Assembly (NCBI GenBank): GCA_951406725.2
Contig: OX597830.1
Location: 74,214,001 to 74,278,000 of the forward strand
Reading direction: 5' to 3'
From: Octopus vulgaris
Lineage: Eukaryota
Length of the DNA stretch: 64,000 nt
Part shown: in pieces, positions 60,265 to 62,263 of the stretch
How positions within the stretch are numbered: position 1 is the first letter of the stretch
Layout of the letters: the number at the start of each line of letters is the position of its first letter
Made by a program: the position numbers and the translations under genes
Notes under the pieces: model-generated
Database searches by the model: none
Told to the model about the DNA's origin: nothing
What the model saw: only the letters and a program-made list of their open reading frames with translations

Positions 60265-60992
60265 TATATATATATATATATATATATATACATATAATAT
60301 ATATATATAACGTACCTCATTGGCCTTGTATGTTAGTATATATATATATATATATATATATATATATATATATATATATATATATATATATATATATATA
60401 TATATATATATACATATATATACATATATACGTATATATACATATATACGTATATATACGTATATATACATATATGTATATATATGTAAATATATATATA
60501 TATGTATATATATATTTACATATATATACATATATATACATATGTGTGTGTGTGTGTATGTATGTCTTATATATATATACGTACATACGCACACAAGCTC
60601 GCACACTAGCGCATATTTCCATACGTATATTTATAGAAGATAAACAAGAATATTATAGACAGTAACTTCTAAGTTTATATGCAGAAACATCGAAGTCAGT
60701 GTCAATAATATTCTTATTAAGATTAATAATATCAGATAAATTTAAAATTGCTGTTATTACAGCTGAACATAAAAAACAAACATTATTTTATGAAAAGGTG
60801 TGTATATATACACATATATAAAATAACGTTTGTTTTTTGTTATAAAACAATTATATATATATATATATATATATATATATATATATATAGACATCAAGAA
60901 TGCTTATTTCTATCAAAGTTGGACTCCGGGCATGACAGACCCTGTAATTCACATATGCAAAACCGATAACGAATACGAAGTCTGGCGGTTAT

Positions 60993-61103
60993 CTGTGAAC
61001 ATCATGTTTCTGGATTATAAACATATTGAATATATATTCCATATATTTTTGATATATATTTCATATATATTGCATATATATTTAACATCCTTCTTCAGCA
61101 CAG
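60993..61103 (-). ncRNA. type I hammerhead (left arm copy)
   Basis: Reverse complement of 61726-61836. Confidence 0.65.
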
Positions 61104-61725
61104 CTTTCCATTGAAAAGATTTATCATAGATTTATCAAATGCTACGTACCTCAAACCTTCTGACCATGCGACATCAAAATATTTGAAGAAAGTGAGCAAG
61201 GCTAAACCTACATAGACGTTTGAATTCATAAATCTTCCTCCAAAATTTTGCCATGCGCATCACAAAAATAGTTCCGTAAGATGGGGAACAATTAGGTTGT
61301 CAAAGGGAGTGAAAAATCCAAATAGTAATATAATGATAAGAGTAAATAATTTCTATAAAGGCTTTTAAAAAACCAATTATTTACTGGTAGAATTCGGTAT
61401 GTAAATATAGCCGATTACCGGCATACCGAATTCTACCAGTAAATAATTGGGTTTTTTTTAAAAGCCTTTATAGAAATTATTTACTCTTATCATTATATTA
61501 CTATTTGGATTTTTCACTCCCTTTGACAACCTAATTGTTCCCCATCTTACGGAACTATTTTTGTGATGCGCATGGCAAAATTTTGGAGGGAAGATTTATG
61601 AATTCAAACGTCTATGTAGGTTTAGCCTTTGCTCACTTTCTTCAAATATTTTGATGTCGCATGGTCAGAAGGTTTGAGGTACGTAGCATTTGATAAATCT
61701 ATGATAAATCTTTTTCAATGGAAAG

Positions 61726-61836
61726 CTGTGCTGAAGAAGGATGTGAAATATATATGCAATATATATGAAATATATATCAAAAATATATGGAATATATATT
61801 CAATATGTTTATAATCCAGAAACATGATGTTCACAG
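61726..61836 (+). ncRNA. type I hammerhead with long AU-rich stem II (right arm copy)
   Basis: CUGUG-CUGAAGA-A-GGAU...AUCC-A-GAAAC-AUGAU-GUU-CACAG; predicted cleavage after 61831. Confidence 0.7.
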
Positions 61837-62263
61837 ATAACCGCCAGACTTCGTATTCGTTATCTGTTTTGCATATGTGAATTACAGGGTCTGTCATGCC
61901 CGGAGTCCAACTTTGATAGAAATAAGCATTCTTGACTGCTATTTCTATTTTTTCGGTATGCGGTCAAGCAACCTGTTTTGCCTGTCCCTTTTTCTTATAT
62001 ACAATATATATACTGAACTTTACAGAAGTTCCTGCCGGTAATCGGCTATATTTACATACCGAATTCTACCAGTAAATAATTGGGGTTTTTTTAAAAGCCT
62101 TTATAGAAATTATTTACTCTTATCATTATATATATATATATATATATATATATATATATATATATATATATATATATATATATATATATATATATATATA
62201 TATATATATATATATATATATATATATATATATATATATATATATATATATATATATATTTGC

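Follow-up and report, generated by a model that had tools for sequence, protein, structure and literature searches.

A probable Penelope-type insertion of a hammerhead-bearing, retrozyme-like unit with an adjoining mirror copy in a TA microsatellite of Octopus vulgaris

In the passages cited here, insertions of Penelope-like elements (PLEs) are often described as a partial tandem next to an inverted, 5'-truncated copy, with a 30-40-bp tail at one end (PMC8557442). The tail is called optional or frequent, not universal (PMC8557442, PMC3846280), and the bias of PLEs for microsatellites is stated to hide target duplications (PMC8557442). For the element Pen2a of Adineta, the inverted repeat is given as overlapping the direct one by 15 bp (PMC3846280). 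How such tandem plus inverted insertions are made is, by the account in PMC8557442, an unsolved problem, and self-priming on the antisense strand has been proposed for the head-to-head junctions (PMC3846280). According to the sections of PMC11167929 used here, the anole PLE protein is a predicted dimer able to cut AT-rich DNA on both strands and to extend each of them. For reverse transcription it uses two start sites inside the RNA, both in a stem-loop and lying about 85-92 nt and more beyond the hammerhead cut, and in vitro it prefers uncleaved RNA.

Hammerhead ribozymes link these elements to smaller repeats. For Schistosoma, a 2014 report describes paired hammerheads that lie on opposite strands, about 100-700 bp from each other (PMC4209133, in the part cited). 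Non-LTR retrozymes are described in a preprint excerpt as hammerhead tandem units of 51-972 bp derived from PLE terminal repeats (bioRxiv 10.64898/2026.07.22.740005), and PLEs have been named as their likely mobiliser (PMC7229834). As presented in the cited portions of both sources, the case for retrozymes riding on PLEs rests mainly on co-occurrence and phylogeny. For Octopus vulgaris, 31 PLE families are given in a table of PMC13282606.

The window analyzed here is a stretch of 64,000 nucleotides of O. vulgaris (assembly GCA_951406725.2, contig OX597830.1, forward strand from 74,214,001), consisting of microsatellite-dense eukaryotic sequence of 25-40% GC. Positions are counted from its first letter. 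A non-coding insert of 1.2 kb sits within a TA microsatellite at 60852-62259 (Table 1). A preliminary description made from the letters had proposed a palindrome of about 1 kb with a hammerhead in each arm (+ in the right, - in the left), a loop recurring as its reverse complement before the arm restarts, a tandem period of 633 bp and (TA)n flanks. We found each of these features, the right arm ending at 61935, one base beyond the 61934 first given. This palindrome is the sole inverted match near 1 kb at >90% identity across the window.

Table 1. Features of the insert and its flanks, in window coordinates (unit positions are counted from +1 = 61422).
Feature	Position	Strand	Basis
(TA)19 run, left half of the presumed target microsatellite	60852..60889	.	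sequence
4 bases matching neither the TA run nor the arm	60890..60893	.	sequence comparison
Inverted copy of unit -22 to +514 (left arm plus "loop")	60894..61423	-	alignment
Type I hammerhead motif, mirror copy; core start 61098, predicted cut 60998	60993..61103	-	motif
20-nt palindrome loop, element-derived	61402..61421	-	exact reverse complement of 62035-62054
4-bp GC hairpin with 5-nt loop at the antisense arm's 3' end, then the 2-nt overlap 61422-61423 common to both arms	61410..61423	+	
One full 633-bp non-coding unit, 33% GC	61422..62054	+	period, folding
Type I hammerhead motif, GUU triplet, predicted cut after 61831	61726..61836	+	motif
Predicted stem-loop, 10 bp, p 0.92; its loop holds 61935, the inverted arm's end	61915..61949	+	folding
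Second unit start, partial tandem: 77 bp (99 bp with the part also seen inverted)	62055..62131	+	period 633
(TA)66 run, right half of the presumed target microsatellite	62127..62259	.	sequence

The left arm (60894-61401, 508 nt) and the right arm (61422-61935, 514 nt) are identical at 506 of 514 positions, the remainder being 2 mismatches and 6 gap bases, the latter spread over 4 gaps. Each of these gaps falls in a homopolymer run, with the left arm the shorter one, so that homopolymer indels make up 4 of the 6 differences; one G/T run is present in three versions. Both substitutions are G/T, not A/G, and marks of A-to-G editing between the arms were absent. The loop matches the 20 bases preceding the second unit start at 20/20 positions, and the match extends 2 nt into 61422-61423. 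Since the loop is thus derived from the element, it forms with the left arm a single inverted copy. The period of 633 is given by 61422-61498 and 62055-62131, which are identical at 76 of 77 positions. Between the end of the right arm and this repeat lie ~120 nt, the final 22 of which also occur inverted.

From left to right the insert therefore reads (TA)19, 4 unmatched bases, inverted +514 to -22, direct +1 to ~+707, and (TA)66. The TA run lies 4 nt from the left end and is merged with the right end, so the end of the second unit is ambiguous over 62126-62131. A target-site duplication is unreadable within (TA)n, and TA runs are frequent in the window as a whole (95 runs, 6% of the sequence). 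The two 3' ends of the insert are offset by about 191-196 nt.

All six frames of the element are interrupted by stops. Among 20 element frames of at least 28 aa, a set that left out frames across stem II, none passed the Pfam cut-off (the best hit, to an unrelated family, had E 0.02), while a control frame in the left neighbor gave a mariner-type transposase domain at E 1.4e-10 in the same scan. A coding remnant in the unit was rejected on this result of 0/20. An origin from a tRNA or other Pol III gene was rejected as well: ARAGORN found 0 genes, and A- and B-box patterns were unmatched. A 22-nt motif of the element gave 0 matches in metagenome contigs.

Folded as a circle, the unit is strongly self-paired, with a z of -4.2 that was reached by 0/40 shuffles. 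Without stem II the circular fold still gave z -3.3 (0/50 shuffles), against -1.4 to +2.0 for five control stretches. Strong circular self-pairing is not universal among these repeats, since the neighboring 404-bp unit gave z -0.7. In addition, bases 61422-61430 of the direct arm are complementary to 61952-61960 (unit +531-539) and close a large domain of the predicted fold (p 0.96); in this model the pairing would set both ends at the junction on helix boundaries.

The hammerhead of the sense strand has a 5-bp stem I, a 3-bp quasi-palindromic stem III, which is a 4+4 inverted repeat round one G, and a long AT-rich stem II of ~80 nt whose base holds an A-A opposition. The descriptor used for the search was composed after the motif had been seen and lets stem II carry one additional base on each side; it had 5 hits in the window and no hit in any of 100 block-wise dinucleotide shuffles. 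Of the 5, two belong to the 633-bp element and two to the 404-bp dimer nearby, the last being a solo motif at 21.4 kb. Rfam returned 0 matches at the gathering score over the window; its 24 matches at E<=10 included no hammerhead and were mostly microRNA-type models on the hairpin, all below gathering scores. The cores of the two arms are 633 bp apart, equal to the period, which we treat as a coincidence.

In the fold of the 136-nt motif alone, stem I has p 0.82-0.90, stem II 0.99-1.0, and stem III 0.47-0.71. For stem I, p drops to <=0.01 once the motif is folded within 285 nt of context, as part of the circular monomer or within the right part by itself. Weak cleavage is suggested by the GUU triplet and by the A-A opposition at the stem II base, and the ribozyme at 61726-61836 is predicted to be weak. 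The A-A opposition may be a local variant rather than decay, since the motif at 21.4 kb carries the same one. The shape of stem III would suit the dimer mode described in the cited part of PMC4209133. It had also been suggested that read-through RNA of the arms would sequester the ribozyme. In the predicted read-through RNA of the whole insert all hammerhead stems indeed have p=0.0, but the palindrome adds little to this blocking, since stem I is predicted to be open already in the monomer and in the right part.

Several other repeats of the window were compared with the insert. A diverged relative lies at 10455-10768; it is also head-to-head between TA runs and has 33-bp terminal inverted repeats. 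Its inverted arm matches unit +426 to +556, the best of 3118 tiles, with a score of 82 against a shuffle maximum of 48 (0/500). Its direct arm scores 47 (1/500), the part beyond the terminal repeat not being significant (37/500 shuffles), and one predicted stem-loop seems to be kept despite changed letters. It could be what remains of a PLE or, with its terminal inverted repeats, a small derivative of a DNA transposon.

A second hammerhead repeat is found 450 bp downstream of the insert, at 62580-63371. It is TA-flanked, with a 404-bp period and about two units that are 99% alike, and holds two identical type I hammerheads with a GUC triplet and a palindromic loop 3. The solo type I hammerhead at 21374-21460 has a long stem II, a palindromic loop 3 and an A-A at the base of stem II; it lies 139 nt upstream of (TA)n, and its minimum-energy fold is not a hammerhead. 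Kinship of the insert with this 21.4-kb region was rejected (52 and 158 of 200 shuffles). Older imperfect palindromes without a hammerhead hit occur at 28254-28635 (84%) and 42038-42296 (86%) and are probably miniature inverted-repeat elements. Kinship with the one at 42038-42296 was rejected, 14/500 shuffles reaching the score of each arm. To the left of the insert, 59500-60215 is a broken remnant of a mariner-type transposase (Pfam Transposase_1). Directly after the right TA run comes a repeat at 62261-62560, in which ARAGORN finds nothing and which we take to be SINE-like with a tRNA-like head. Finally, a 180-aa open frame at 17450-17992 (-) presumably resembles the end of a LINE reverse transcriptase.

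Part of the element was present, by shares of 31-mers, in 20 of the 24 sequencing runs listed, from 10 studies covering four organisms and one metatranscriptome. Ten of the runs listed hold half or more of it, with a best share of 0.63; one run that holds it may be the source of the assembly itself. Seven holders among the runs listed, with shares of 0.35-0.63, are RNA by guess only, and one holder is on record as RNA with a share of 0.09. That run, a feces metatranscriptome, and four runs at 0.00 were left out of the evidence. These shares show that the unit is real and common to relatives. They are silent on the junction, since just 32 of the 870 distinct 31-mers are junction-specific.

We consider the insert to be very probably a PLE-type passenger insertion. 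As the preliminary description had supposed, the layout is that published for PLEs: the short tandem with a mirror copy is a familiar arrangement and makes an ordinary PLE passenger likely. The 77-bp direct repeat, or 99 bp with the inverted evidence, corresponds to the partial tandem that serves PLEs as a pseudo-LTR. The adjacent copy is head-to-head and 5'-truncated, its orientation being set by the strand of the hammerhead, and both sides show the AT-rich or (TA)n target. Counting against the PLE reading are the hammerhead, which lies outside the 99-nt direct redundancy, and the end difference of about 191-196 nt in place of the usual, if optional, tail of 30-40 nt. By analogy with described PLEs, the insertion was likely made, and recently, by the reverse transcriptase-endonuclease of an autonomous element. 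Our main reading, to which we give a probability of about 0.65, is a recent, non-autonomous, retrozyme-like PLE passenger in (TA)n whose mirror junction arose from cDNA folding back on a small hairpin.

The proposed course is as follows. The template RNA would have exceeded one unit and been unbroken at the ribozyme site, as an uncleaved multimer or a re-ligated circle, since both arms cross the cut site intact. Nicks on both strands of the TA target would have started cDNA synthesis at two points of the RNA, near +514 and near +707. The left cDNA would have stopped just beyond the GC hairpin, at -22, snapped back, slipped by 9 nt onto the 2-nt match, and been extended as the sense strand; this strand would then have paired with the right cDNA, and gaps would have been filled. 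The snap-back itself we rate as an even proposition. Any fold-back must have been on the antisense strand, since antisense arm, loop and sense arm follow in that order on one strand, and the slip onto the 2-nt overlap is needed because the product of a plain snap-back would be 9 bases longer than what is observed. As the sense arm outruns the inverted one, we also deduce that another cDNA was primed at the right end. The fold-back or template switch during reverse transcription that had been suggested at the outset thus keeps its place, in that the junction lies on a snap-back hairpin; a single fold-back is insufficient, since the sense arm extends ~195 nt beyond the end of the inverted arm. 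Two-ended priming fits, by analogy, the behavior of the anole PLE, the inverted arm ending 104 nt past the cut and in the loop of a predicted stem-loop. No report of retrozymes with snap-back or self-priming was found in the literature searched, which included few subscription papers.

Two of the alternatives concern whether the mirror copy is genuine and whether it was made during insertion. There is a slim chance, judged from the sequence, that the inverted arm is an artefact of library or assembly (a fold-back chimera, a hairpin adapter or a mis-join of repeat copies). The four homopolymer indels between the arms and the G/T run in three versions would suit such an origin, as would the top share of sampled words, which is 0.63 per run. 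That share is, however, close to the ceiling of ~0.76 expected for a run with one version of the unit, and the homopolymer differences point to imperfect assembly or polishing. The loop is element sequence and not foreign, and a fold-back would mirror the left flank after +514, where instead ~195 nt more of the unit and then a different flank are found. The inverted arm also has -22 to +514 contiguously, which the direct part cannot template in one step, and the layout is a published one that recurs in the older relative at 10455-10768. On this evidence a simple fold-back artefact apparently cannot yield the structure of the insert. It is highly improbable that a tandem copy was inserted first and that the inverted duplication came later, by replication template switching at the hairpin. 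A hairpin with microhomology at a junction is also a mark of replication template switching, both are present here, and the (TA)n flanks are unstable. The inability of the direct part to template -22 to +514 in one step, though, would call for a longer tandem and a further deletion, and the inverted arm stops within the element beside (TA)n, 104 nt beyond the cut, at a point expected for PLE ends.

Granting a PLE-type insertion, two opposed cDNAs could have been joined on the 2-nt overlap at 61422-61423, as in twin priming, without a snap-back. The overlap is there, no 9-nt slip is necessary, and the same hairpin in the RNA sense (unit 613-625, p 1.0) could have stalled synthesis. We regard this course as unlikely, and equally so that the hairpin merely stalled one reverse transcriptase: it leaves unexplained why the cDNAs stopped within 22 nt on a 633-nt unit, which the snap-back predicts, and small loops at head-to-head junctions are called common in PLEs in the cited part of PMC3846280. 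The inversion point lies on the most stable kind of short 3'-terminal antisense hairpin, which favours cDNA snap-back with a 9-nt slip. In windows of 16-25 nt, 3-5 of the 633 antisense stop positions are as stable at a DNA 3' end; lengthening the windows to 30 nt gives a weaker rank of 10-13 of 633, and lengthening them to 40 nt one of 32-42 of 633. This ranking is post hoc, having been designed after the hairpin was seen, and the two DNA parameter sets, which gave identical numbers, count as one test. A separate question is the template. A tentative, minority option, compatible with the main reading, is an RNA circle of 633 nt, produced when the hammerhead cleaved and the ends were ligated, and copied more than once around; a possibly circular RNA of this length had been put forward earlier. 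The sense arm exceeds one unit, both arms cross the cut site, the unit is strongly self-paired as a circle with or without stem II, and retrozyme circles are documented in the cited part of PMC7229834. A circle is thus allowed; it is not needed, since both arms are accounted for just as well by a linear RNA of ~732 nt that stayed uncleaved and was terminally redundant over 99 nt. The GUU triplet, the A-A opposition and a stem I predicted to be open in full context also speak against it, as do, in the excerpts at hand, Xenopus retrozyme dimers showing no cleavage in 8 of 9 tested (bioRxiv 10.64898/2026.07.22.740005) and the use of uncleaved RNA by the anole PLE in vitro (PMC11167929). That a retrozyme-type circle was retrotransposed directly by Penelope machinery, with a built-in snap-back hairpin priming second-strand synthesis, is doubtful. 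If true, the locus would record two-ended target priming, copying of a 633-nt circle beyond one unit, and a hairpin-primed second strand, all of them unsolved steps of the PLE cycle.

The insert is one more case of a documented layout and is usable as a clean test case. The junction hairpin gives a modest hint, and one that can be tested, of how the inverted copy originated: if the inversion points of many copies fall on hairpins, that origin becomes testable from genome data alone. If read through, the 510-bp near-perfect palindrome would also yield long double-stranded RNA, which the preliminary description took as a possible ADAR or Dicer substrate. In the literature covered, which held few subscription papers, the terms for a cephalopod hammerhead or retrozyme family co-occur in PMC8557442 alone.

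Compared with endonuclease-bearing PLEs (Penelope/Poseidon, Neptune, Nematis), as these are described in the cited parts of PMC8557442 and PMC3846280, the insert shares the partial tandem with an adjacent head-to-head copy and the short junction offset, for which Pen2a gives the 15-bp parallel (PMC3846280). Unlike ends on the two sides and a (TA)n site without a readable target duplication are also common to both. Those PLEs carry a type I hammerhead some 100 nt from a 3' end; in the insert the cut is 104 nt from the end of the inverted arm, but the motif lies outside the 99-nt direct redundancy. In contrast, the insert carries neither the reverse transcriptase nor the GIY-YIG endonuclease frame of an autonomous PLE, its ends differ by ~195 nt rather than 30-40, and its inverted copy spans most of the unit. 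The Cercyon PLE remnants of Schistosoma, in the portion of PMC4209133 cited, have opposite-strand hammerheads 100-700 bp apart, the pair in the insert being 633 bp apart, and share with it the long stem II, short stem I and palindromic loop 3. In the insert, by contrast, the base of stem II bears an additional A on each side instead of on the 5' side alone, and stem II is ~80 nt long. Chlamys elements such as MRC1 are, in the section of PMC8557442 used, non-coding PLE passengers with pseudo-LTRs and head-to-tail insertions, like the insert; they are, however, algal and mostly without hammerheads.

Animal non-LTR retrozymes, as characterized in the cited parts of PMC7229834 and bioRxiv 10.64898/2026.07.22.740005, resemble the insert in their non-coding low-GC unit (here without a Pfam family) with one type I hammerhead, their head-to-tail period and their strongly self-paired predicted circle. 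The main texts of these two sources lack the word "inverted", save in one reference title. The 633-bp unit falls inside the 51-972-bp range of the preprint but is larger than the 170-400-nt circles of invertebrates. For an active retrozyme, the definition excerpted from the preprint asks for two or more units in succession, with a complete hammerhead in every one. The direct part of the insert has 1.16 units with one sense ribozyme, so the insert is not an active copy by that definition, which the repeat at 62580-63371 fits more closely. The insert looks real and is best read as young and non-autonomous, a retrozyme-like unit inserted in the Penelope manner and in an architecture that is already known. 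A retrozyme-like unit in the inverted architecture of PLEs would provide structural evidence for the link between retrozymes and PLEs.
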